Source: a virus (lineage: Duplodnaviria > Heunggongvirae > Uroviricota > Caudoviricetes). From it: DNA of 12,139 nt. A program made the translations under genes and the position numbers. Under the pieces are notes generated by a model. That model was not told the origin of the DNA. It did not search any database and saw nothing but the letters and a program-made list of their open reading frames with translations. This document shows positions 1 through 12,139 of this stretch, piece after piece. The first letter of the stretch is position 1. Each line of letters begins with the position of its first letter. The DNA lies in IMG/VR virus record IMGVR_UViG_2541047682_000010, one strand, 5' to 3'.

Positions 1-213
1 TTTCCGGGGCGCATCATGCTGGCTAATACCTGCACCTGGACCTATCGCGGTGATGAGTGCGGTTATCACGGTCCGGCTGTCGCGGATGAATATGACCAGC
101 CGACGTCCGATATCACGAAGGATAAATGCAGCAAATGCCTGAGTGGTTGTAAGTTTCGCAATAACGTCGGCAACTTTGGCGGCTTCCTTTCCATTAACAA
201 ACTTTCGCAGTAA
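1..213 (+). CDS. L: Tail tip protein L, 3' partial (5' end lies upstream of the window)
   Basis: Frame is open from base 1 to TAA at 211-213. The translated C-terminus (CTWTYRGDECGYHGPAVADEYDQPTSDITKDKCSKCLSGC...) matches my recollection of lambda gpL, and the position directly upstream of K-I-J fits lambda gene order. Confidence 0.85.
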   Translation, partial: FPGRIMLANTCTWTYRGDECGYHGPAVADEYDQPTSDITKDKCSKCLSGCKFRNNVGNFGGFLSINKLSQ

Positions 214-217
214 TCCC

Positions 218-961
218 ATGACACAGACAGAATCAGCGATTCTGGCGCACGCCCGGCGATGTGCGCCAGCGGAGTCGTGCGGCTTCGTGGTGAGAACGCC
301 GGAGGGGGAAAGATATTTTCCCTGCGTGAATATCTCCGGTGAGCCGGAGGCGTATTTCCGGATGTCGCCGGAGGACTGGCTGCGGGCAGAGATGCAGGGT
401 GAGATTGTGGCGCTGGTCCACAGCCACCCCGGTGGTCTGCCCTGGCTGAGTGAGGCCGACCGGCGGCTGCAGGTGCAGAGTGATTTGCTGTGGTGGCTGG
501 TCTGCCGGGGTGAGATTCATAAATTCCGCTGTGTGCCGCATCTTACCGGGCGGCGCTTTGAGCACGGGGTGACGGACTGTTACACGCTGTTCCGGGATGC
601 TTATCATCTGGCGGGGATTGAGATGCCGGATTTTCATCGCGGGGATGACTGGTGGCGTCACGGTCAGAATCTCTATCTGGATAATCTGGAGGCCACAGGG
701 CTGTATCAGGTGCCGTTGTCAGCGGCGCAGCCGGGCGATGTGCTGCTGTGCTGTTTTGGTTCATCGGTGCCGAATCATGCCGCCATTTACTGTGGTGACG
801 GCGAGCTGCTGCACCATATTCCTGAACAACTGAGCAAACGAGAGAGGTATACCGACAAATGGCAGCGACGCACACACTCCCTCTGGCGTCACCGGGCATG
901 GCACGCATCTGCCTTTACGGGGATTTGCAACGATTTGGTCGCCGCATCGACCTTCGTGTGA
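218..961 (+). CDS. K: Tail tip assembly protein K, with an N-terminal JAB/MPN (JAMM) domain and a C-terminal NlpC/P60 domain
   Basis: ATG at 218 lies 4 nt after the L stop. A JAMM motif HSHPGGLPWLSEAD (HxHx7SxxD) and an NlpC/P60-like Cys/His pair (GVTDCYTLF ... NHAAIYCGDGELLHH) are visible in the translation. An in-frame ATG at 362, preceded by GGAGG, would give the 199-aa form I recall from the classical lambda annotation, so the start is uncertain. Confidence 0.8.
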   Translation: MTQTESAILAHARRCAPAESCGFVVRTPEGERYFPCVNISGEPEAYFRMSPEDWLRAEMQGEIVALVHSHPGGLPWLSEADRRLQVQSDLLWWLVCRGEIHKFRCVPHLTGRRFEHGVTDCYTLFRDAYHLAGIEMPDFHRGDDWWRHGQNLYLDNLEATGLYQVPLSAAQPGDVLLCCFGSSVPNHAAIYCGDGELLHHIPEQLSKRERYTDKWQRRTHSLWRHRAWHASAFTGICNDLVAASTFV

Positions 962-1506
962 AAACGGGGGCCGAAGCCATCCGGGCGCTGGCCACACAGC
1001 TCCCGGCGTTTCGTCAGAAACTGAATGACGGCTGGTATCAGGTGCGCATTGCCGGGCGTGATGCAGGTGAAACCGAATTATCTGCCCGTCTTAATGAGCC
1101 GCTGGCAAATGGTGCCGTGATCCATATCGTGCCGCGTCTGGCGGGAGCTAAAAGTGGCGGTGTATTTCAGGTGGTGCTGGGGGCGGCGTTGATTGCGGTG
1201 GCATGGTGGAACCCTGTGGGCTGGCTGGGTGCCGCGGCTGTATCGGGCATGTATGCGGCAGGGGCCAGTATGATCCTGGGCGGTGTGGCGCAGATGCTGG
1301 CACCGAAAGCCAGGACGTCCACGGCAGCCAGTACAGATAACGGCAAACAGAACACCTATTTTTCCTCACTGGATAACATGGTTGCTCAGGGCAATGTTCT
1401 GCCTGTTCTGTACGGTGAAATGCGTGTGGGGTCGCGGGTGGTTTCTCAGGAGATCAGCACGGCAGACGAAGGGGATGGTGGTCAGGTTGTGGTGATTGGT
1501 CGCTGA
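859..1506 (+). CDS. I: Tail assembly protein I, ubiquitin-like (beta-grasp) N-terminal domain followed by a Gly/Ala-rich hydrophobic C-terminal region
   Basis: Translation begins MAATHTLPLASPGMARICLYGDLQRFGRRIDLRVKTGAEAIRALATQLPAF, which matches lambda gpI as I recall it. It overlaps the 3' end of K by 103 nt in a different frame. A ubiquitin-like tail IHIVPRLAGAKSGG is present. Confidence 0.9.
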   Translation: MAATHTLPLASPGMARICLYGDLQRFGRRIDLRVKTGAEAIRALATQLPAFRQKLNDGWYQVRIAGRDAGETELSARLNEPLANGAVIHIVPRLAGAKSGGVFQVVLGAALIAVAWWNPVGWLGAAAVSGMYAAGASMILGGVAQMLAPKARTSTAASTDNGKQNTYFSSLDNMVAQGNVLPVLYGEMRVGSRVVSQEISTADEGDGGQVVVIGR

Positions 1507-1525
1507 TGCAAAATGTTTTATGTGA

Positions 1526-1545
1526 AACCGCCTGCGGGCGGTTTT
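1526..1545 (+). other. Intergenic stem-loop between I and J (8-bp stem AAACCGCC/GGCGGTTT, 4-nt loop), followed by a U-rich stretch
   Basis: Perfect inverted repeat read directly from the sequence. It sits 20 nt after the I stop and 22 nt before the J start. Function unknown; possibly an mRNA structural element or a weak terminator. Confidence 0.3.
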
Positions 1546-1566
1546 GTCGTTTATGGAGCATGACGA

Positions 1567-4500
1567 ATGGGTAAAGGCAGCAGTAAGGGGCATACCCCGC
1601 GCGAAGCGAAGGACAACCTGAAATCCACGCAGTTACTGAGTGTGATCGATGCCATCAGCGAAGGACCGATAGAAGGTCCGGTGGATGGATTAAAAAGCGT
1701 GCTGCTGAACAGTACGCCGGTGCTGGACAGTGAAGGGAATACCAACATCGCCGGTGTCACGGTGGTGTTCCGGGCAGGTGAGCAGGAGCAGACACCGCCG
1801 GAGGGATTTGAATCCTCCGGATCCGAGACGGTGCTGGGTACGGAAGTGAAATATGACACGCCGATCACCCGCACCATCACGTCGGCAAACATCGACCGTC
1901 TGCGCTTTACCTTCGGTGTGCAGGCACTGGTGGAAACCACCTCAAAGGGGGACAGGAATCCATCGGAAGTCCGCCTGCTGGTTCAGATACAACGTAACGG
2001 TGGCTGGGTGACGGAAAAAGACATCACCATTAAGGGCAAAACCACGTCGCAGTATCTGGCCTCGGTGGTGGTGGATAACCTGCCGCCGCGCCCGTTTAAT
2101 ATCCGGATGCGCAGGATGACGCCGGACAGCACCACAGACCAGCTGCAGAACAAAACGCTCTGGTCGTCATACACCGAAATCATCGATGTGAAACAGTGCT
2201 ACCCGAACACGGCACTGGTCGGCGTGCAGGTGGACTCGGAACAGTTCGGCAGCCAGCAGGTGAGTCGTAATTATCATCTTCGCGGGCGCATTCTGCAGGT
2301 GCCGTCGAACTATAACCCGCAGAGGCGGCAATACAGCGGTATCTGGGACGGAACGTTTAAACCGGCATACAGCAACAACATGGCATGGTGTCTGTGGGAT
2401 ATGCTGACCCATCCGCGCTACGGCATGGGGAAACGTCTTGGTGCGGCGGATGTGGACAAATGGGCGCTGTATGTCATCGGACAGTATTGCGACCAGTCGG
2501 TGCCGGATGGTTTTGGTGGCACGGAGCCGCGCATCACCTGTAATGCGTACCTGACCACACAGCGCAAGGCGTGGGATGTGCTCAGTGATTTCTGCTCGGC
2601 GATGCGCTGTATGCCGGTATGGAACGGGCAGACGCTGACGTTCGTGCAGGACCGACCGTCGGATAAGGTGTGGACCTATAACCGCAGTAATGTGGTGATG
2701 CCGGATGATGGCGCGCCGTTCCGCTACAGCTTCAGCGCCCTGAAGGACCGCCATAATGCCGTTGAGGTGAACTGGATTGACCCGGATAACGGCTGGGAGA
2801 CGGCGACAGAGCTTGTTGAAGATACGCAGGCCATTCTCCGTTACGGTCGTAACGTCACGAAGATGGATGCCTTTGGCTGTACCAGTCGGGGGCAGGCACA
2901 CCGCGCCGGGCTGTGGCTGATTAAAACGGAGCTGCTGGAAACGCAGACCGTGGACTTCAGCGTGGGTGCTGAAGGGCTTCGCCATGTACCGGGCGATGTC
3001 ATTGAAATCTGCGATGATGACTATGCCGGTATCAGCACCGGCGGGCGAGTGCTGGCGGTGAACAGCCAGACCCGGACGCTGACGCTCGACCGTGAAATCA
3101 CGCTGCCATCCTCCGGTACCACGCTGATAAGCCTGGTTGACGGAAGTGGCAATCCGGTCAGCGTGGAGGTTCAGTCCGTCACCGACGGCGTGAAGGTAAA
3201 AGTGAGCCGTGTTCCTGACGGTGTTGCTGAATACAGCGTATGGGGGCTGAAGCTGCCGACGCTGCGCCAGCGACTGTTCCGCTGCGTGAGTATCCGTGAG
3301 AACGACGACGGCACGTATGCCATCACCGCCGTGCAGCATGTGCCGGAAAAAGAGGCCATCGTGGATAACGGAGCGCACTTTGACGGCGACCAGAGCGGCA
3401 CGGTGAATGGTGTCACGCCGCCAGCGGTGCAGCACCTGACCGCCGAAGTCACCGCAGACAGCGGGGAATATCAGGTGCTGGCGCGCTGGGACACGCCGAA
3501 GGTGGTGAAGGGCGTGAGCTTCCTGCTCCGTCTGACCGTAACAGCGGATGACGGCAGTGAGCGGCTGGTCAGCACGGCCCGGACGGCGGAAACCACTTAC
3601 CGCTTCAGGCAGCTGGCGCTGGGGCGTTACACGCTGACGGTCCGGGCGGTAAATGCCCGGGGACAGCAGGGCGATCCGGCGTCGGTATCGTTCCGGATTG
3701 CCGCACCGGCAGCGCCGTCTCGGATTGAGCTGACACCGGGCTATTTTCAGATAACCGCCACGCCACATCTTGCGGTTTATGACCCGACGGTACAGTTTGA
3801 GTTCTGGTTCTCGGAAAAACGGATTGCGGATATCAGGCAGGTTGAAACCACAGCCCGCTATCTTGGCACGGCGCTGTACTGGATAGCTGCCAGTATCAAT
3901 ATCAGGCCGGGCCATGATTATTATTTTTACGTTCGCAGTGTGAACACCGTTGGCAAATCGGCATTCGTGGAGGCTGTTGGTCGGGCGAGCGATGATGCGG
4001 AAGGTTACCTGGATTTTTTCAAAGGCCAGATAACCGAATCCCATCTTGGCAAGGAGCTGCTGGAAAAAGTCGAGCTGACGGAGGATAACGCCAGCAAACT
4101 GGAGGAGTTTTCGAAAGAGTGGAAGGACGCCAGTGATAAGTGGAATGCCATGTGGGGCGTCAAAATTGAGCAGACCAAAGACGGCAAACATTATGTCGCG
4201 GGTATTGGCCTCAGCATGGAGGACACGGAGGAAGGCAAACTGAGCCAGTTCCTGGTTGCCGCTAACCGTATCGCGTTTATTGATCCGTCTAATGGCAACA
4301 CAAGACCAATGTTTGTTGGTCAGGGCGATCAGATATTCATGAACGACGTGTTCCTGAAACGCCTGACGGCTCCGACCATTACCAGCGGCGGTAATCCTCC
4401 GGCATTTTCCCTGACACCGGATGGGCGGCTGACGGCGAAAAATGCCGATATCAGCGGTAACGTGAATGCGAACTCCGGGACGCTCAACAACGTCACGATT

Positions 4501-4962
4501 AACGAGAACTGTCGGGTTCTGGGAAAACTGTCCGCGAACCAGATTGAAGGCGATCTCGTTAAAACAGTGGGCAAAGCTTTCCCCCGGGACTCCCGTGCAC
4601 CGGAACGGTGGCCATCAGGGACCATTACCGTCAGGGTTTATGACGATCAGCCGTTTGACCGGCAGATTGTTATTCCTGCGGTGGCATTCAGCGGCGCTAA
4701 ACATGAGAGAGAGCATACTGATATTTACTCCTCATGCCGTCTGATAGTGCGGAAAAACGGTGCTGAAATTTATAACCGTACCGCGCTGGATAATACGCTG
4801 ATTTACAGTGGCGTTATTGATATGCCTGCCGGTCACGGTCACATGACGCTGGAGTTTTCGGTGTCAGCATGGCTGGTAAATGACTGGTATCCCACAGCAA
4901 GTATCAGCGATTTGCTGGTTGTGGTGATGAAGAAAGCCACCGCAGGCATCAGTATCAGCTGA
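1567..4962 (+). CDS. J: Central tail fibre / host specificity protein J (1131 aa)
   Basis: Single long ORF with GGAG 8 nt upstream of the ATG. The N-terminus [54 protein letters not shown] matches my recollection of lambda gpJ, and the length is close to lambda J (1132 aa). Confidence 0.95.
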
Positions 4963-4981
4963 ATTTTATAACCCATATACG

Positions 4982-5008
4982 GGCGCCAGAATTGGCGCCT
5001 TTTTTATT
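4982..5008 (+). terminator. Rho-independent terminator after J (7-bp stem GGCGCCA/TGGCGCC, loop GAAT, then TTTTTTATT)
   Basis: Perfect hairpin followed by a T-run, 20 nt after the J stop. Confidence 0.65.
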
Positions 5009-5029
5009 GCAGAAAAGCGAGAGGTAATT

Positions 5030-5629
5030 ATGCGTAAAGTTTGTGCAGCCATTTTGTCCGCAGCCATTTGTCTGGCCGTATCCGGTGCGCCTGCATGGGC
5101 GTCTGAACATCAGTCCACGCTGAGCGCGGGGTATCTTCATGCCTCGACGAACGTCCCCGGCAGTGATGATCTGAACGGGATTAACGTGAAATACCGTTAT
5201 GAGTTTACGGACACACTGGGGCTGGTGACGTCATTCAGCTATGCAGGAGACAAGAATCGCCAGCTGACCCGTTACAGCGATACCCGCTGGCATGAAGATT
5301 CCGTTCGTAACCGCTGGTTCAGCGTAATGGCGGGGCCGTCTGTGCGCGTGAATGAATGGTTCAGCGCGTATGCGATGGCGGGTGTGGCTTACAGCCGTGT
5401 GTCGACTTTCTCCGGGGATTATCTTCGCGTAACTGACAACAAGGGGAAAAAGCACGATGTGCTGACCGGAAGTGATGACGGTCGCCACAGCAACACGTCT
5501 CTGGCGTGGGGGGCTGGCGTGCAGTTTAACCCGACCGAATCCGTGGCCATTGATATTGCTTATGAAGGCTCCGGCAGTGGCGACTGGCGCACTGACGGTT
5601 TCATCGTGGGTGTCGGTTATAAGTTCTGA
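5030..5629 (+). CDS. lom: Lom, Ail/Lom-family outer-membrane beta-barrel protein (lysogenic-conversion moron)
   Basis: 199-aa ORF with an N-terminal signal peptide (MRKVCAAILSAAICLAVSGAPAWA) and a C-terminal aromatic residue (ends GVGYKF), typical of OM beta-barrels. It sits after J as in lambda, with GAGAGG 6 nt upstream of the ATG. Confidence 0.9.
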   Translation: MRKVCAAILSAAICLAVSGAPAWASEHQSTLSAGYLHASTNVPGSDDLNGINVKYRYEFTDTLGLVTSFSYAGDKNRQLTRYSDTRWHEDSVRNRWFSVMAGPSVRVNEWFSAYAMAGVAYSRVSTFSGDYLRVTDNKGKKHDVLTGSDDGRHSNTSLAWGAGVQFNPTESVAIDIAYEGSGSGDWRTDGFIVGVGYKF

Positions 5630-5655
5630 TTAGCCAGGTAACACAGTGTTATGAC

Positions 5656-5682
5656 AGCCCGCCGGTTCAGGCGGGCTTTTTT
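5656..5682 (+). terminator. Rho-independent terminator after lom (8-bp stem AGCCCGCC/GGCGGGCT, loop GGTTCA, then TTTTTT)
   Basis: Perfect hairpin and T6 tract read from the sequence, 27 nt after the lom stop. Confidence 0.7.
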
Positions 5683-6242
5683 GTGGAGTGGATATGGCAG
5701 CAGTAAAAATCTCAGGTGTGCTGAAAGATGGTGCGGGAAAACCAATACAGAACTGCACTATTCAACTGAAGGCAAAGCGTAACAGCACCACGGTACTGGT
5801 GAACACGGTGGCCTCTGAAAATCCGGATGAAGCCGGGCGTTACAGCATGGATGTTGAGTATGGTCAGTACAGCGTCACCCTGCTGGTTGAAGGTTTTCCG
5901 CCTTCACATGCCGGGACCATTACCGTCTATGAAGGTTCCAGACCAGGTACGCTGAATGATTTTCTCGGTGCCATGACGGAAGATGATGTCATGCCGGAGG
6001 CATTGCGTCGTTTTGAGGCAATGGTGGAAGAAGCGGCACGCAACGCCGAAGCCGCCTCTCAGAGCGCAGCAGCGGCAAAGAAATCCGAAACTGCAGCGGC
6101 ATCATCGAAGAACGCGGCGAAAACCTCAGAAACAAATGCAGCTAACAGCGCACAGGCGGCAGCGTCCTCGCAGACTGCATCGGCAAACTCCGCGACAGCA
6201 GCCAAAAAATCAGAAACCAACGCGAAAAATAGCGAGACAGCC

Positions 6243-6382
6243 GCAAAGACGAGCGAAACCAACGCAAAGTCCAGCCAGACGGCAGCGAAAACAAGCGAAA
6301 CGAATGCCAAAGCCAGTGAAACTGCGGCAAAAAACAGCCAGGTTGCAGCAGCCCAAAGCGAGAGCGCGGCAGCCGGTTCTGC
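6243..6382 (+). repeat. Direct repeat copy 1 (about 140 bp) inside the stf shaft coding region
   Basis: Near-identical to 6432-6571, offset 189 bp (63 codons). Encodes AKTSETNAKSSQTAAKTSETNAKASETAAKNSQ.AAAQSESAAAGS. Confidence 0.75.
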
Positions 6383-6431
6383 GACTTCAGCAGCTGGATC
6401 AGCAACTGCTGCGGCTAACAGCCAGAAAGCT

Positions 6432-6571
6432 GCGAAGACGAGTGAAACTAACGCAAAGTCCAGCCAGACGGCAGCGAAGACCAGCGAAACGAATGCCAAA
6501 GCCAGCGAAACTGCGGCGAAAAACAGTCAGGATGCAGCAGCCCAAAGCGAGAGTGCTGCAGCTGGTTCTGC
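6432..6571 (+). repeat. Direct repeat copy 2 (about 140 bp) inside the stf shaft coding region
   Basis: Near-identical to 6243-6382; same reading frame and same peptide repeat. Confidence 0.75.
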
Positions 6572-7227
6572 AAGCGCGGCGGCTGCTTCTGCCACTGCAT
6601 CAGCCAACAGTCAAAAAGCAGCAAAAACCAGTGAAACCAATGCAAAGACAAGCGAGACTGCAGCGGCGAACTCGGCGAAAGCATCCGCTGCAAGCCAGAC
6701 CGCTGCAAAAGCAAGTGAAGACGCAGCCAGAGAGTATGCAAGCCAGGCAGCAGATCCGTATAAATATGTCTTACAGCCGCTGCCTGATGTGTGGATACCG
6801 TTTAACGATTCACTGGATATGATTACGGGCTTTTTGCCATCATATAAAAAGATTGTTATTGGTGACGACGAAATAACGATGCCTGGCGACAAGATTGTTA
6901 AGTTTAAACGTGCATCGAAAGCAACCTATATTAACAAATCTGGTGTGCTGACAGAGGCTGCCATTGATGAGCCACGATTTGAACGTGATGGCCTGCTTAT
7001 TGAGGGGCAAAGAACTAATCTTCTGCTTAATTCAACAAATCCATCTAAATGGAATAAGTCAGGCAATCTGGAACTCACAGAAATATCCACGGATTCTTTT
7101 AATTTTACTTATGGGAGATTTACTGTAAAAGATACTCTTATTGGTCAGACAAGTGCTATTAATATCGTAACGATTTCTGGCAGTAAAGGGTTTGATGTCA
7201 CAGGTGATGAAAAATATGTGACCATTT

Positions 7228-7232
7228 CATGC
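7228..7232. repeat. IS2 target-site duplication, left copy (CATGC)
   Basis: Identical 5-mer immediately flanks both IS2 termini. IS2 is known to make 5-bp duplications. Confidence 0.85.
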
Positions 7233-7243
7233 TGGATTTGCCC

Positions 7244-8149
7244 CTATATTTCCAGACACCTGTTATCACTTAACCCATTACTGGCTTGCTGCCGCAGATA
7301 TTCCCGTGGCGAGCGATAACCCAGTGCACTATGCGGATGCCATTCGTTATAATGCTCGAACGCCTCTGCAAGGTTCTTTGCTGCCGTTAACCCGTCTGGT
7401 TTGGGCATGACACTGATGTAGTCACGCTTTATCGTTTTCACGAAGCTCTCTGCTATGCCGTTACTCTCCGGACTCCGCACCGCCGTGCTCTTCGGTTCAA
7501 GCCCCAACATCCGGGCAAACTGCCGTGTTTCATTAGCCCGGTAGCATGAACCATTATCCGTCAGCCACTCTACTGGAGACGCCGGAAGCTCGTTGCCGAA
7601 GCGGCGTTCCACCGCTCCCAGCATGACGTCCTGTACTGTTTCACTGTTGAAGCCGCCCGTAGTGACCGCCCAGTGCAGTGCCTCACGGTCACAGCAGTCC
7701 AGCGCGAACGTGACTCGCAGTTTTTCTCCGTTATCACAGCGGAACTCGAACCCGTCAGAGCACCATCGCTGATTACTTTCTTTCACAGCCACTCTGCCTG
7801 TATGTGCCCGTTTCGATGGCGGTACAGCAGGTTTTCGCTCAAGCAACAGCGCATTCTGGCGCATGATCCGGTAAACACGTTTGGCATTGATCGCAGGCAT
7901 ACCATCAAGTTCTGCCTGTCTGCGAAGCAGCGCCCATACCCGACGATAACCATACGTGGGCAGCTCTCCGATAACATGGTGTATACGGAGAAGCACATCC
8001 GTATCATCAGTGTGACGACTGCGGCGGCCATCCATCCAGTCATCGGTTCGTCTGAGAATGACGTGCAACTGCGCACGCGACACCCGGAGACAACGGCTGA
8101 CTAAGCTTACTCCCCATCCCCGGGCAATAAGGGCGCGTGCGCTATCCAC
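7244..8149 (-). CDS. insD: IS2 transposase OrfB (InsD; DDE integrase-like catalytic domain), 301 aa
   Basis: Translation [23 protein letters not shown]...[12 protein letters not shown] is recognised as IS2 InsD. It overlaps insC by 43 nt, where an A6G slippery run (CAAAAAAG on the - strand, about 8149-8156) is the known site of programmed -1 frameshifting that produces the OrfAB transposase. Confidence 0.9.
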
Positions 8150-8472
8150 TTTTTTGCCCGTCCATATTCAACGGCTTCTTTGAGGAGTTCATTTTCCATC
8201 GTTTTCTTGCCGAGCAGGCGCTGGAGTTCTTTAATCTGCTTCATGGCGGCAGCAAGTTCAGAGGCAGGAACAACCTGTTCTCCGGCGGCGACAGCAGTAA
8301 GACTTCCTTCCTGGTATTGCTTACGCCAGAGAAATAACTGGCTGGCTGCCACACCGTGTTGCCGGGCAACGAGGGAGACCGTCATCCCTGGTTCAAAGCT
8401 CTGCTGAACAATTGCGATCTTTTCCTGTGTGGTACGCCGTCTGCGTTTCTCCGGTCCTAAGACATCAATCAT
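8107..8472 (-). CDS. insC: IS2 OrfA (InsC; helix-turn-helix regulator and transposase N-terminal part), 121 aa
   Basis: Translation [56 protein letters not shown]... is recognised as IS2 InsC. The ORF track gives an extended 136-aa frame from 8517; the canonical start is the internal Met. Confidence 0.9.
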
Positions 8473-8563
8473 CTGCTCTCCAATGACTAGTCTAAAAACT
8501 AGTATTAAGACTATCACTTAAATAAGTGATATTGGTTGTCTGGAGATTCAGGGGGCCAGTCTA

Positions 8564-8568
8564 CATGC
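8564..8568. repeat. IS2 target-site duplication, right copy (CATGC)
   Basis: Identical to 7228-7232. Confidence 0.85.
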
Positions 8569-9407
8569 CGTGTAAGAAGTGATGTTGAAAATATAAGGTG
8601 TCGTTTAAGATTTGAACACCATGATGGTTATACTTACACTTTTTTGGGAGATGCTTACCTCAATTTATCAACACTTGTAATTGATAAAACTGGTACTGCT
8701 GCAGACCGTATTATTGCAAAGGCTGTAAAAGATGAGGTTACTGGTTGGATTTTCTATCAGGCTACAATTAATGCACTAGATACAGAGAGCATGATTGGTG
8801 CGATGGTTCAATACGCTCCTGTAAAAGGTTCAGGTACAGCATCTGGAGACTATCTGGATATCGCAACTCCACAAGTGGAAGGTGGATCAAGTGCTTCGTC
8901 ATTTATTGTAACTGATATAACTGCAAGCACTCGCGCAAGCGATATGGTGACAGTCCCAATCAAGAATAACCTTTATAATCTTCCTTTTACGGTTCTTTGT
9001 GAGGTACATAAGAACTGGTATAAAACGCCAAATGCAGCACCGCGTGTTTTTGATACCGGCGGTCATCAAACCGGAGCGGCTATTATTCTTGGCTTCGGTC
9101 GTTCAACAGATTACGACGGATTTCCTTATTGTGATATAGGTTTGGCTAACAGACGGGTAAACGAAAACGCATCGCTTGAAAAAATGGTTATGGGGATGCG
9201 TGTAAAGTCAGATCAGTCTACGTGCTCAGTAAGTAACGGGCGTATATCCAGCGAAAAGAAAGCCACATGGTCCTATATTCAGAACTCCGCAATTATCCGT
9301 ATTGGAGGCCAGACTACAGCCGGGTTGCGTCATTTATTTGGTCATGTCAGGAATTTCAGAATATGGCACAAGGCATTGACTGATGCTCAGATGGGGGAGT
9401 CAATCTA

Positions 9408-9689
9408 ATGAAAGATTTAACACTCAAATTTGCAGACAGGGCCGACTTTTCGGCCTTTATGGATAGCATTGGCTATTATGATGACGAGTCGATGCAGGAT
9501 GATATTCTTATTGACGTGATAGGTAACGTGTACAAAGAAACCGGAGAACTGACTGAAGATGGCGAACCGGTATGTGTTAAGGAAGATGGATATTTTGTAA
9601 ACGTGCGCATCATTAATGATGCAAAAAAATCGTTAATATTCGATGAATACGCGGTTGTAGTTGAACATCAACTTCGTGGCTGGATGTGA
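9408..9689 (+). CDS. Hypothetical small acidic protein (93 aa), translationally coupled to stf
   Basis: The ATG overlaps the stf stop (TAATG). GGGGAG lies 9 nt upstream. Low G+C like the distal stf domain. Asp/Glu-rich. No family recognised. Confidence 0.6.
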   Translation: MKDLTLKFADRADFSAFMDSIGYYDDESMQDDILIDVIGNVYKETGELTEDGEPVCVKEDGYFVNVRIINDAKKSLIFDEYAVVVEHQLRGWM

Positions 9690-9698
9690 GGGAGACAA

Positions 9699-10403
9699 AT
9701 GGCTACATCGACAGTAATTCCAGGAGACATCACCACGTTAAAGGGAGATGTCAGTAAAGCCAAGGAAGATATTTCCTCAATTAACGGAAAAGTATCAACG
9801 CTTCAGGCTGATATGACCAGTGCAAAGCAGGATATCAGCACCAGATACACAAAAACTGAAGTTGATAATAAGCTGAAAAACAAACTGGAAGTGAACGCTC
9901 TGGAAAGCGGTCGTTATGGTGGAGATTTTTACCCGTTGACTGGCCGTGAAGCGTTTTATTTGTGGGGATTGGGCACGACTACAGCGGCGGCAAACCTTTA
10001 TCTTAATCCTGACCCCGCAATTTCGTCTGTGCTGCGGTCAACATCGTCTATCCGCTATAAACATTCAGTAGAGACAATAGATTCAGAGCACGCCGATCTC
10101 ATTTTCAGGATGCGCCCTGTGTGGTACAGGTCACAATGCGAAAATGACAGGCGTGACTGGGGATTCTACGGATTGATTGCCGAGGAAGTAGGAGAAATTG
10201 CCCCTCAGTTTGTACACTGGCGACCAGCTAACGAAGATGATGCACCGGAAGCTATTTCCAGCAATGGCCTTGTTGCCGAAGGTGTAATGTACGAACGTCT
10301 GGTTGTTCCACTGATTCACCATATCCAGAAGCTGACTGAAAGAGTTGATGAACTTGAGTCAGAATTAAAGTTGTTATCCGTTTCCCGAAGCGATATCGGA
10401 TAA
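9699..10403 (+). CDS. Tail-fibre-related protein with a coiled-coil N-terminus and a C-terminal peptidase-S74-like intramolecular-chaperone domain (234 aa)
   Basis: GGGAG lies 6 nt before the ATG. The C-terminal 120 residues carry the characteristic S74 pattern: SSIRYKHSVETID (compare SDxRxKxNI), then RPVWYR, then GLIAEEVGEIAPQFV, then MYERLVVPLIHHIQKLTERVDELESEL. The N-terminus has heptad-like repeats (DITTLKGDVSKAKEDISSINGKVSTLQADMTSAKQDIS). Confidence 0.75.
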   Translation: MATSTVIPGDITTLKGDVSKAKEDISSINGKVSTLQADMTSAKQDISTRYTKTEVDNKLKNKLEVNALESGRYGGDFYPLTGREAFYLWGLGTTTAAANLYLNPDPAISSVLRSTSSIRYKHSVETIDSEHADLIFRMRPVWYRSQCENDRRDWGFYGLIAEEVGEIAPQFVHWRPANEDDAPEAISSNGLVAEGVMYERLVVPLIHHIQKLTERVDELESELKLLSVSRSDIG

Positions 10404-10413
10404 AGGAGGAGTA

Positions 10414-10707
10414 ATGGATATAACACCTTTCCTTCATGCGCTTTGTGCTGTGGCTGCGCAGCTACTGATTGGTCTTTTTACCGGGAACTGGGCTTACGGG
10501 GCGATAGCTGGTTGTACGTTCTTCATTGCGCGTGAACACACCCAGGCAGAATATCGCTGGATTGAAATGTTCGGGCATGGCAAGCGAATGAATATGCCGT
10601 GGTGGGGCGGTTTTGATCCGCGCGCGTGGGATGTGGCAAGCCTGATGGATTTTGCTGTGCCGGTGGTGGCGTGTCTGCTGGTCTGGCTGTTGGTTAATCG
10701 TGGGTGA
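10414..10707 (+). CDS. Hypothetical small membrane protein (97 aa, two to three predicted transmembrane segments)
   Basis: Strong RBS AAGGAGG 7 nt before the ATG. Hydrophobic stretches FLHALCAVAAQLLIGLF, AYGAIAGCTFFIA and FAVPVVACLLVWLLV. G+C is similar to the phage backbone, not the low-GC cassette. Confidence 0.55.
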   Translation: MDITPFLHALCAVAAQLLIGLFTGNWAYGAIAGCTFFIAREHTQAEYRWIEMFGHGKRMNMPWWGGFDPRAWDVASLMDFAVPVVACLLVWLLVNRG

Positions 10708-10717
10708 AAAAAGGTGA

Positions 10718-10837
10718 GCTGTATATGCAACGGAGGAAGAAACCTCGTTGCTGGAAGCCTGGAAGAAGTATCGGGTGTTGCTGAACCGTGTTGATACGTC
10801 AACTGCACAGGATATTGAATGGCCAGCACTGCCGTAG
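10718..10837 (+). pseudogene. tfa: 3' remnant (39 codons) of the tail fibre assembly gene tfa
   Basis: The frame opens right after a TGA at 10715-10717 and reads [39 protein letters not shown]-stop. This matches the conserved C-terminus of lambda-type Tfa as I recall it (..[30 protein letters not shown]..). There is no start codon and no N-terminal Tfa domain. Confidence 0.7.
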
Positions 10838-10934
10838 GGTAAAACATATAAATTCTATAATTAGATGTATCTTTCCATTTACGGCAAGGAAGGGGGCTTG
10901 GAAGACGTAAAGCATCTCACACCGAGATTATTTT

Positions 10935-11525
10935 TTATATGTCAGGTGTCTGAAGTTTTGCTTTGGCTCTTAAAATGGTTTGCCGCGAGGTTTTGAATTC
11001 CCGGGCAATGGCACTTATACTTACACCTGACTTAATTCGTTCGAATACCACCTGTTTCTGTTCTTCATTTAACACAGGTGGTCGACCAAAACGTTTCCCT
11101 GCGCCCCGGGCTCTTACTATCCCGGAATGAGTGCGTTCAAGTAAAAGGTCTCGTTCAAATTCAGCGACTGCTGAAATTACTTGCATCATCATTTTCCCTG
11201 TTGGACTGGTCAGGTCAATGCCCCCCAATGCTAAGCAATGCACTCTGATACCTGTTTCGGTCAGTTGTTCCACTGTTTTCCTGATATCCATTGCATTACA
11301 ACCAAGGCGATCCAGTTTTGTCACAATCAATTGATCACCACATTTCAGACGAGCAAGCAACCGGTTAAAACCAGGACGCTCACTGGTTGCTGCTGAGCCG
11401 CTAATGTGTTCTTCGATTATTTGCTGAGGTTTGATTTTAAAACCTGCACTTTCGATTTCCCGGCGTTGATTTTCGGTGGTCTGATCCAGCGTTGATATCC
11501 GACAGTAAGCAAAAATTCGAGACAT
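10935..11525 (-). CDS. pin: Serine recombinase (resolvase/invertase family, PinR/PinQ-like), 196 aa
   Basis: N-terminal catalytic motif YCRISTLDQ with the nucleophilic Ser, and a C-terminal helix-turn-helix ([20 protein letters not shown]). The sequence matches my recollection of the E. coli prophage PinR/PinQ proteins. Position next to tfa is as in Rac and Qin. Confidence 0.9.
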
Positions 11526-11905
11526 AGTGAGACTCTATACGAAATTGGTGTACATATCATAATGCATATCCAAAAATTATTTCGCTTATTATTGTACATA
11601 TTTGTATGTATACGTTCGAAAATAAACGAATTCGGATGCAGTCCCGTAATTTTGGTGTAACCAAAAATCGATTTTTTGAAAAATGGCTTTAACTCGGTTT
11701 GTTTTTCGAACTCCGGGCGGACTCGAGGAAGACGAATAATAGTGTTGTATGTTATTTCAACCAGATTTTAAGTTGTTTGGTCGTGGAAAAGTGGAGCAAA
11801 ATGTTGTTAAAGTGGAAAAATGGTAAAAAAAGTAGGTTGTTGCGGAATAACGTAGTTGTTGATATTTTTTTAATGCATTGAAAAATTATTTTTCAGGGGG
11901 GGGTA
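11526..11905. promoter_or_regulatory. AT-rich intergenic region upstream of pin: presumed pin promoter, with short direct repeats (TGTACATAT at about 11548 and 11595) and a G8 homopolymer at 11896-11903
   Basis: No convincing ORF. Very AT-rich. Lies 5' of pin on the - strand and 3' of the small - strand ORF. I could not place -35/-10 elements with confidence. Confidence 0.3.
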
Positions 11906-12139
11906 TTACACTTTACCATTTAAATTTTGGTTGTCTTTAAGAACTGATATCGCTGTTTGTAATAATTCTTTGTTATCCAGCCATGACTTTTTCTTTATGT
12001 TTCCTTCAATGTAATCAAGCAATGTTCTGGTATTGATAGGTCTTCCCTGTTTTGCTACTTCCACGACAGCATCTCCCAGGATAATTCTGACTTCAGGAAG
12101 CTGCGCAGGGAACCACTTTAGGGTGTCTTTTGATTTCAT
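11906..12139 (-). CDS. Small prophage protein (77 aa if the ATG at the window edge is the true start), YnaE/YdfK-like by synteny
   Basis: Complete ORF on the - strand whose ATG is the last three bases of the window. Its RBS and any upstream extension cannot be seen. The position next to pin matches pinR-ynaE and pinQ-ydfK in E. coli K-12. The synteny assignment is from memory and was not verified. Confidence 0.5.
   Translation of the reverse strand: MKSKDTLKWFPAQLPEVRIILGDAVVEVAKQGRPINTRTLLDYIEGNIKKKSWLDNKELLQTAISVLKDNQNLNGKV

Follow-up and report, generated by a model that had tools for sequence, protein, structure and literature searches.

The side-tail-fibre locus of a lambdoid prophage, its middle probably replaced by a mobile lateral-fibre cassette and its stf gene split by IS2

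The window analysed here is the whole 12,139-nucleotide stretch of the Caudoviricetes record IMGVR_UViG_2541047682_000010. It covers the tail end of a lambdoid prophage, in which tail assembly genes, J, lom and the side-tail-fibre gene stf are followed by a pin-type invertase gene and ydfK-like genes (Table 1). Between the start of stf and a short 3' remnant of tfa lie the distal part of stf and three open reading frames of 93, 234 and 97 codons (ORF93, ORF234 and ORF97). We think it likely that this side-tail-fibre locus has kept lambda/Rac-type ends while its middle was replaced by a mobile lateral-fibre cassette, which would make a two-part fibre. A locus that is 99.7% identical, adjoining prfC and osmY, is found in the avian pathogenic Escherichia coli (APEC) strain E19035. 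The annotation there gives, in order, J, Lom, a 792-residue 'prophage tail fiber N-terminal domain-containing protein', a 93-residue hypothetical protein, a 234-residue 'tail fiber domain-containing protein', a 97-residue hypothetical protein, a tfa pseudogene 'missing N-terminus' and a recombinase.

Table 1 Features of the side-tail-fibre locus, in window coordinates
Feature	Coordinates	Strand	Basis or content
J	1567-4962		ORF list and annotation of a relative
lom	5030-5629		ORF list and annotation of a relative
stf 5' part, codons 1-513	5694..7232	+	PF08400 anchor, repeat shaft, start of low-GC distal region
IS2, 1331 bp	7233..8563	-	inverted repeats, target duplication, identity to K-12 IS2A
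stf 3' part, codons 514-792 and stop	8569..9408	+	rest of jelly-roll and conserved C-terminal domain, aa 637-792
ORF93, small alpha+beta protein, candidate fibre assembly/adaptor protein	9408..9689	+	TAATG overlap with stf stop
ORF234, probable second (distal) fibre	9699..10403	+	PF13884, N-terminal motif, dN/dS, Shine-Dalgarno
ORF97, small membrane protein	10414..10707	+	phrog_1443, hydrophobic segments
tfa 3' remnant, last 36 codons and stop	10727..10837	+	tblastn, nucleotide homology, PGAP pseudogene call
pin-type serine DNA invertase gene, intact	10935..11525	-	Pfam Resolvase and HTH_7

The stf gene is interrupted by an insertion sequence (IS), IS2. Its orfA (8107-8517, 136 residues) and orfB (7244-8149, 301 residues) lie on the minus strand between imperfect terminal inverted repeats, and a 5-bp target duplication, CATGC, can be read off the sequence at 7228-7232 and 8564-8568. 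The element is 98.0% identical, without gaps, to K-12 IS2A over 1238 nt, so that every feature of IS2 (IS3 family) is present: a length of 1331 bp, imperfect inverted repeats, the 5-bp duplication, orfA/orfB and near-identity to the reference. The original prediction had missed the element and had taken the reading frame at 5688-7319 as stf; since IS2 splits the gene, that frame runs into IS2 sequence and ends there, and the remainder of stf is found at 8569-9408. Removing IS2 and one copy of the duplication in silico (5694-7232 joined to 8569-9408) restores a 792-residue Stf that is identical at every residue to WP_000741761.1 of APEC E19035 and is present in many E. coli genomes. In the present genome stf is inactivated by IS2 after codon 513 and the fibre system is dead.

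IS3-family elements have struck the cassette independently at least three times. Besides the insertion at 7233-8563 in the present window, strain 2-1 carries one after about stf codon 463, in the opposite orientation to the IS2 seen here, and ECOCN22 carries one within the 234-residue gene (L013 7986-9213 and L002 6130-7358, respectively); an IS also lies underneath the match in several other genomes (hits H23-H30). These recurrent hits may reflect a target preference for AT-rich DNA, or selection that disarms the prophage fibre.

Nucleotide homology to lambda and to the K-12 prophage Rac runs through J, lom and the first ~350-390 nt of stf and ends at ~6046-6085, within the Ala/Ser/Thr-rich 'TSETNAK' repeat shaft that is common to lambda-type and T5-type fibres. 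Homology restarts at exactly 10726, and from there to the end of the window, through pinR and ynaE, the DNA is 92% identical to the tfaR-pinR-ynaE region of Rac. The remnant of tfa begins at this point: tblastn aligns 10727-10834 to residues 156-191 of lambda Tfa (92%) and of TfaR (97%), the match to Pfam Caudo_TAP covers positions 95-130 of 131 (E 9.5e-17), and PGAP labels the stretch a pseudogene missing its N-terminus. The remnant seen in the original prediction is therefore real, although it comprises 36 homologous codons and not 39, and by its alignment it marks the right-hand recombination junction at 10726.

Base composition was examined across the same region. In 300-nt windows over 1-5600 the mean G+C fraction (GC) is 0.569 (standard deviation 0.041, minimum 0.48), and the repeat shaft of Stf, which reaches ~aa 352, has a GC of 0.55. 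Inside stf, maximum likelihood puts the change point at 6759 (GC 0.548 before it, 0.384 beyond it), in agreement with the drop first placed at ~6760 (peptide DPYKY), and this break is the border between the shaft and the unique distal region. Cassette windows of 300 nt have GC 0.38-0.43, and GC at third codon positions, 0.62-0.67 in J and lom, is only 0.32-0.43 in the cassette genes. The drop is thus real, but low GC does not extend unbroken over 6760-10400 as had been proposed: IS2 (7233-8563), with a GC of 0.53, interrupts it and lifts the profile to 0.50-0.58 across 7201-8400, ORF234 is only mildly low at 0.46, and on the right the transition is gradual and yields a weak change point near 9885. 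ORF97, with a GC of 0.54, had been counted among the flanking GC-rich genes; the gene lies inside the replaced segment, because lambda/Rac homology resumes only at 10726.

The breakpoints against lambda and Rac, together with the GC of homologous modules in the virulent siphophages IrisVonRoten, swan01 and ESCO3 (0.40-0.45, matching 0.38-0.46 in the cassette), support the exchange that the original prediction envisaged, in which distal stf and all but the last 36 tfa codons were replaced by a horizontally acquired receptor-binding module swapped into a lambda-like fibre. The replaced segment would be a mobile lateral-fibre cassette common to virulent T5-like, T1-like and 9g-like siphophages, and the crossovers would probably have taken place in the repetitive shaft at its left end and, at its right end, in the last ~100 nt of tfa, which are conserved. 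That the low GC arose without horizontal transfer, as a local compositional or codon constraint on a fibre tip that was always in the lambdoid lineage, is very improbable. Receptor-binding fibre ends are often compositionally odd, and the gradual right-hand boundary would suit such an origin. However, the change point in stf is sharp and falls at a domain boundary, the points at which lambda/Rac homology is lost and regained are discrete, and the same module is preceded by N-terminal anchors unrelated to one another in T5-like, T1-like, Queuovirinae and P2-type fibres, with nucleotide identity of the stf distal end reaching 92% in the T5-like phage FGS017 (73-75% in swan01 and KurtStettler).

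Stf itself joins a lambda-type start to a different end. The N-terminal anchor PF08400 spans residues 3-132 (E 1e-66, Pfam) and lies downstream of J and lom, as in a lambda-type locus, whereas a full-length Tfa (~190 aa) and a lambda/Rac-like distal Stf were not found. With the stf-tfa loci of lambda, Rac and Qin the window shares the J-lom-stf context, PF08400, the Ala-rich shaft, the last 36 tfa codons and the downstream pin, ydfK and ynaM-like genes. In contrast, the distal two thirds of their stf, tfa codons 1-155 and the Tfa-dependent C-terminal tip are all absent here.

Distally, Stf residues 435-636 match the NCBIfam family NF048003, 'GTA_spike_fiber', with 58.6 bits (cut-off 36), and in a sequence search this jelly-roll region matched Rcc01080, the head spike fibre of the Rhodobacter capsulatus gene transfer agent (RcGTA; PDB 6tb9, E 2.5e-4). 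An AlphaFold2 (AF2) model of the distal 503 residues of Stf had a mean predicted local distance difference test score (pLDDT) of 51, with a single confident beta-sandwich corresponding to Stf residues ~449-619. Its Foldseek neighbours were Pseudomonas phage fibre and baseplate proteins and carbohydrate-binding modules (CBMs) of the types CBM4, CBM6 and CBM22; the label 'LamG-like' given to this domain at first was thus roughly right for a jelly-roll of lectin-type fold. In RcGTA, one flexible subunit makes up the head spike fibre and binds capsular polysaccharide (PMC7296036, PMC10218006). Its likeness to the present jelly-roll is one of sequence-level homology at low identity, and it sits on capsid pentons by means of an N-terminal Leu-Gly repeat, whereas the domain described here is carried on a trimeric tail-fibre shaft. 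Clustered at 90% identity, the family of this distal domain amounts to more than 2500 clusters; its members are joined to PF08400 or to fibre N-termini of the P2 type (PF03406, PF12571), or lack a recognised anchor.

Compared with its counterpart in phage Tritos, Stf has 98% identity in the neck and 94% in the C-terminal 156 residues, but only 54% in the jelly-roll (Stf residues 435-636; locus L001, 6095-8473, against L003), so that the divergence sits in an otherwise 94-98% identical distal Stf. A conserved neck and C-terminus around a variable jelly-roll is what would be expected of a domain that determines specificity within a conserved setting. The divergence suggests either domain-level cassette exchange or diversifying selection at a presumed glycan-binding site and the hypervariable, CBM- or lectin-like distal jelly-roll of Stf probably binds glycans.

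ORF234 stands third in the cassette, after stf and ORF93, and we refer to its counterparts in other phages as gene 3. The protein is laid out as a conserved N-terminal anchor (aa 1-~23), a heptad-rich coiled coil, a short tip and a Peptidase_S74 domain that begins at Ser116 (codon at 10044), with ~50 residues between the coiled coil and this chaperone domain. The match to PF13884 (Peptidase_S74) covers residues 116-172 and model positions 1-57 of 58 (27.3 bits, cut-off 22), and both S116 and K121 are invariant in an alignment across gene-3 variants of 227 to 351 residues. In phage endosialidase chaperone domains, such a Ser-Lys pair, spaced by five residues where the domain starts, is the catalytic dyad. 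This intramolecular chaperone (IMC) region also matches the C-terminus of LtfA from phage DT57C (8hqz_d, E 5.5e-7). At the other end of the protein, the motif MxTxTVIPxDIxxLK is common to gene-3 variants of 224 to 589 residues across six phages; the sizes found under it are 224 residues in swan01, 227 and 234 in PhiR55_1 and PhiR49_1, 346 and 351 in Tritos and ESCO3, and 574 and 589 in IrisVonRoten and mar004NP2. The N-terminus is kept throughout while the middles are unrelated. We take ORF234 to be, most likely, a second fibre in distal position and not just an assembly factor.

The whole of ORF234 aligns to positions 1147-1384, the last 238, of the 1385-residue fibre family phrog_3299. Such an alignment could also be expected if ORF234 were the leftover 3' end of an older, longer stf with a fortuitous start, as inert as the tfa stub, leaving Stf and perhaps ORF93 as the only functional products; a true scar, the tfa stub, does lie 320 nt downstream, and lambdoid fibre regions are highly mosaic. 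We regard this as highly unlikely. The ratio of nonsynonymous to synonymous substitution rates (dN/dS) for ORF234 is 0.15-0.18 against copies with a dS of 0.13-0.17, which indicates purifying selection, and the gene has its own ATG with a Shine-Dalgarno sequence, GGGAG, upstream. It is retained in compact virulent genomes (swan01, ESCO3 and T5-like phages), and conservation of the N-terminal motif over very different gene-3 bodies is unexpected for a scar.

The three-gene order of the cassette is the same as that of gp22-gp23-gp24 (bas32_0022, 0023, 0024) in phage IrisVonRoten (Bas32) and its relatives mar004NP2, AKFV33 and Baret. By a count from the alignment, Stf residues 358-792 are ~66% identical to gp22 residues 361-796 (BLASTP 691 bits overall), a count from the final alignment blocks likewise gives ~66% for the C-terminal part, and 'TSETNAK' repeats occur in both shafts. 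ORF93 and gp23 are 38% identical (E 2e-24), each encoded by a small gene of ~92 codons that overlaps the end of the fibre gene, while ORF234 and gp24 are identical at 12 of 28 N-terminal residues and at 27% over 118 residues of the IMC region. In the AlphaFold-Multimer model of the expanded BASEL study, gp24 forms a 'T-shaped' distal fibre with an IMC on the proximal fibre gp22. The C-terminal domain of gp22, which is galectin-like, projects outwards and possibly serves as a further receptor-binding domain, and among gp24 orthologues the N-terminus is strongly conserved (10.1101/2024.09.12.612763). The two systems differ in their proximal anchor, which is the T5 Ltf N-terminus in IrisVonRoten and the lambda-type PF08400 here. 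They also differ in gene 3, since 'T-shaped' gp24 carries a Gp12-like receptor-binding domain (RBD1) and a T5-like one (RBD2), whereas the minimal 234-residue version has neither and gave no alignment to the middle of gp24. The 97-residue membrane protein, the neighbouring tfa stub and pin, and the IS2-broken stf are found only on the present side.

Lateral fibres of T5-like and small siphoviruses may consist of one polypeptide or of two or more proteins (first BASEL paper, PMC8594841). For the branched, L-shaped fibres of DT57C / DT571/2 (LtfA + LtfB) and of phiEco32 gp14/gp15, it has been proposed that a second fibre protein, conserved at its N-terminus, sits on the first, and S74 domains are present (PMC4728585, PMC10713586); for DT57C, genetic evidence points to a branched fibre with LtfA as its first protein and LtfB attached to it (PMC4728585). 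DT57C differs in having IMC domains in both fibre proteins, and an ORF93-like gene goes unmentioned in the excerpted account (PMC4728585). The likeness seen is that of the ORF234 chaperone region to the C-terminus of LtfA, and a 66-residue probe from mar004NP2 gene 3 matched DT57C solely within ltfA, over residues 27-66.

ORF234 might alternatively be a trans-acting folding or trimerisation chaperone for the distal end of Stf, with ORF93 as co-chaperone and both replacing Tfa, much as the original prediction held when it spoke of the module bringing its 'own assembly factors'. The Peptidase_S74 domain fits this role, as do the names given to homologues ('endosialidase chaperone' in ESCO3, 'putative lateral tail fiber chaperone' in VogelGryff and HMD-P4), the short mature length of ORF234 and a Stf that has neither an intramolecular chaperone domain nor Tfa. 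We nevertheless consider this, the main rival, unlikely. According to work on DT57C, S74 domains act in cis on their own polypeptide before cleaving themselves off (PMC4728585, with T5 and K1F as examples cited there), and for one long gene-3 variant the published model is that of a T-shaped distal fibre (10.1101/2024.09.12.612763). Variants of 346, 351, 574 and 589 residues with large receptor-binding regions begin with the same N-terminal 15-23 residues, and ORF234 in its entirety corresponds to the C-terminal end of phrog_3299. The idea of own assembly factors in place of Tfa is too simple: ORF234 looks like a second fibre with a chaperone of its own, which leaves ORF93 as the sole candidate for a free-standing assembly factor in the cassette.

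The start of ORF93 overlaps the stf stop codon (TAATG), so that the two genes are translationally coupled. The protein belongs to phrog_1361, which PHROG annotates as of unknown function, and tblastn found homologues in 181 phage records, each abutting a fibre gene; among these records are lambdoid, Drexlerviridae, Dhillonvirus, Queuovirinae, T5-like and rV5-like phages. The family has just 48 representatives at 50% clustering among 1.84 billion proteins. A dN/dS of 0.20-0.38 points to purifying selection. An AF2 model (pLDDT 84) shows a five-strand sheet with two helices, and no informative structural relative of this model was found. In the rV5-like myovirus EmilHeitz a 110-residue homologue (L008, 5001-5333) follows a 1478-residue lateral fibre, and the gene after it lacks the MxTxTVIP anchor; ORF93 thus tracks the distal domain of the first fibre and not gene 3. 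Since the family is found welded to the 3' ends of fibre genes that encode the jelly-roll/C-terminal domain, in siphoviruses and myoviruses, we tentatively propose, as a possibility somewhat short of even, that phrog_1361 is an undescribed class of fibre accessory protein, acting either as a Tfa-independent chaperone for the lectin-like tip or as an adaptor that couples a swappable second fibre to the first. If true, the ORF93 family would provide a portable 'plug-and-socket' for two-specificity fibres on lambda-, T5-, T1- and rV5-type tails.

In the two-part fibre that we favour, the Stf shaft trimer would present three lectin-like jelly-rolls that bind a surface glycan, for example O-antigen or capsule. 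ORF234 would trimerise through its own chaperone domain, which would then cleave itself off at Ser116, and the mature ~115-residue fibre would dock by its N-terminus on the distal end of Stf, as modelled for IrisVonRoten gp22/gp24. ORF93 may aid assembly or coupling. Tfa would become superfluous, with folding help built in by way of the intramolecular chaperone and perhaps also supplied by ORF93. The original prediction had considered that related lambdoid prophages might share this gene set and keep a full-length tfa elsewhere. The gene set is indeed common, but no tfa homologue was found in the complete 42.9-kb genome of PhiR55_1, a plaque-forming phage that carries the cassette, which is consistent with Tfa being dispensable alongside it.

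Several points weigh against this picture. The C-terminal 170 residues of Stf have a pLDDT below 50, so the docking platform is poorly modelled. Mature ORF234 has only ~115 residues and no recognisable receptor-binding domain, and the GenBank records of related phages name gene 3 'putative lateral tail fiber chaperone' or 'endosialidase chaperone'. The identity of ORF93 is decoupled from that of the Stf C-terminal domain; in PhiR49_1 they are 90% and 46%, respectively. Neither our analysis nor the papers cited offer direct evidence for the presence of ORF234 and ORF93 in the virion or for binding of ORF234 to Stf. Finally, lambda forms plaques without needing its Stf side fibres, and the viability of cassette phages is therefore no proof that the fibre functions without Tfa.

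The distribution of the cassette was surveyed with a 2.3-kb core made up of distal stf, ORF93 and ORF234. This core matches 1786 of the 5426 complete E. coli genomes, 174 of them at a coverage of at least 80%, and the exact proteins of the window occur on 586 to more than 1000 public contigs. The four-gene set of stf, ORF93, gene 3 and ORF97 is present in the plaque-forming lambdoid phages Tritos, 2G7b, PhiR49_1 and PhiR55_1, and the three-gene set in the Nonagvirus ESCO3, the Warwickvirus swan01 and the T5-like phages mar004NP2 and IrisVonRoten. Judged by sequence, the cassette is in its turn a mosaic, with joints that fall between genes and between domains. Tritos has stf, ORF93 and the first 44 nt of gene 3 in common with the window, then a different gene 3, and then again shared DNA from ORF97 through pin; PhiR55_1 shares the shaft, ORF234 and ORF97, with divergent distal Stf and ORF93. 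The original prediction did not recognise the gene combination as a described architecture, a view not supported, given its occurrence in those 174 genomes and in lambdoid phages and the homologous IrisVonRoten module modelled in print. From its homologies, the cassette is a known kind of multi-protein lateral fibre architecture. The lambdoid version, with its minimal 234-residue gene 3 and the 97-residue membrane protein, is not discussed in the literature compared here.

ORF97 accompanies the cassette in lambdoid phages only (Tritos, PhiR49_1 and PhiR55_1). It belongs to phrog_1443, is named 'Ybl63' in UniRef and has hydrophobic segments at residues 1-38 and 73-94; searches of Pfam and PADLOC gave no match. 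It has an AAGGAGG Shine-Dalgarno sequence upstream and, with a dN/dS of 0.19-0.24, is under purifying selection, and it is possibly a lysogenic-conversion or exclusion gene, lying at the classic moron position after the fibre genes.

A strong terminator-like hairpin of eight pairs (seven of them G-C) followed by a T-run is located at 5656-5677, between lom and the start of stf. No further one was found in 5600-11000, hence none inside the operon. The place of this sole terminator-like site, upstream of stf, implies that expression of stf and of the genes down to ORF97 depends on antitermination in the late operon or on read-through from it.

The pin gene lies to the right of the junction and is part of the conserved backbone of Rac/Qin type. 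We considered a Pin-driven invertible tail-fibre segment of the Mu G, P1 C or e14 P type and rejected it for lack of inverted crossover sites and alternative fibre ends: besides the IS2 ends, 5600-12139 holds no credible inverted repeats and hence no bounded invertible segment, and there is no second, oppositely oriented fibre end in the window. The Pin-type invertase at 10935-11525 appears to be an orphan, as in Rac and Qin.

These results are mostly a clarification, in that this mosaic of the E. coli lambdoid fibre region is ordinary and very common, and is here inactivated by IS2. What novelty remains lies in the uncharacterised, widespread ORF93 and ORF97 families. More broadly, a multi-protein cassette of virulent T5-, T1- and 9g-like phages appears to circulate into temperate lambdoid phages. 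Its junctions, in the repetitive shaft and the last ~100 nt of tfa, would be natural splice points, and could guide the construction of Tfa-free, lambda-based delivery particles with new specificities.

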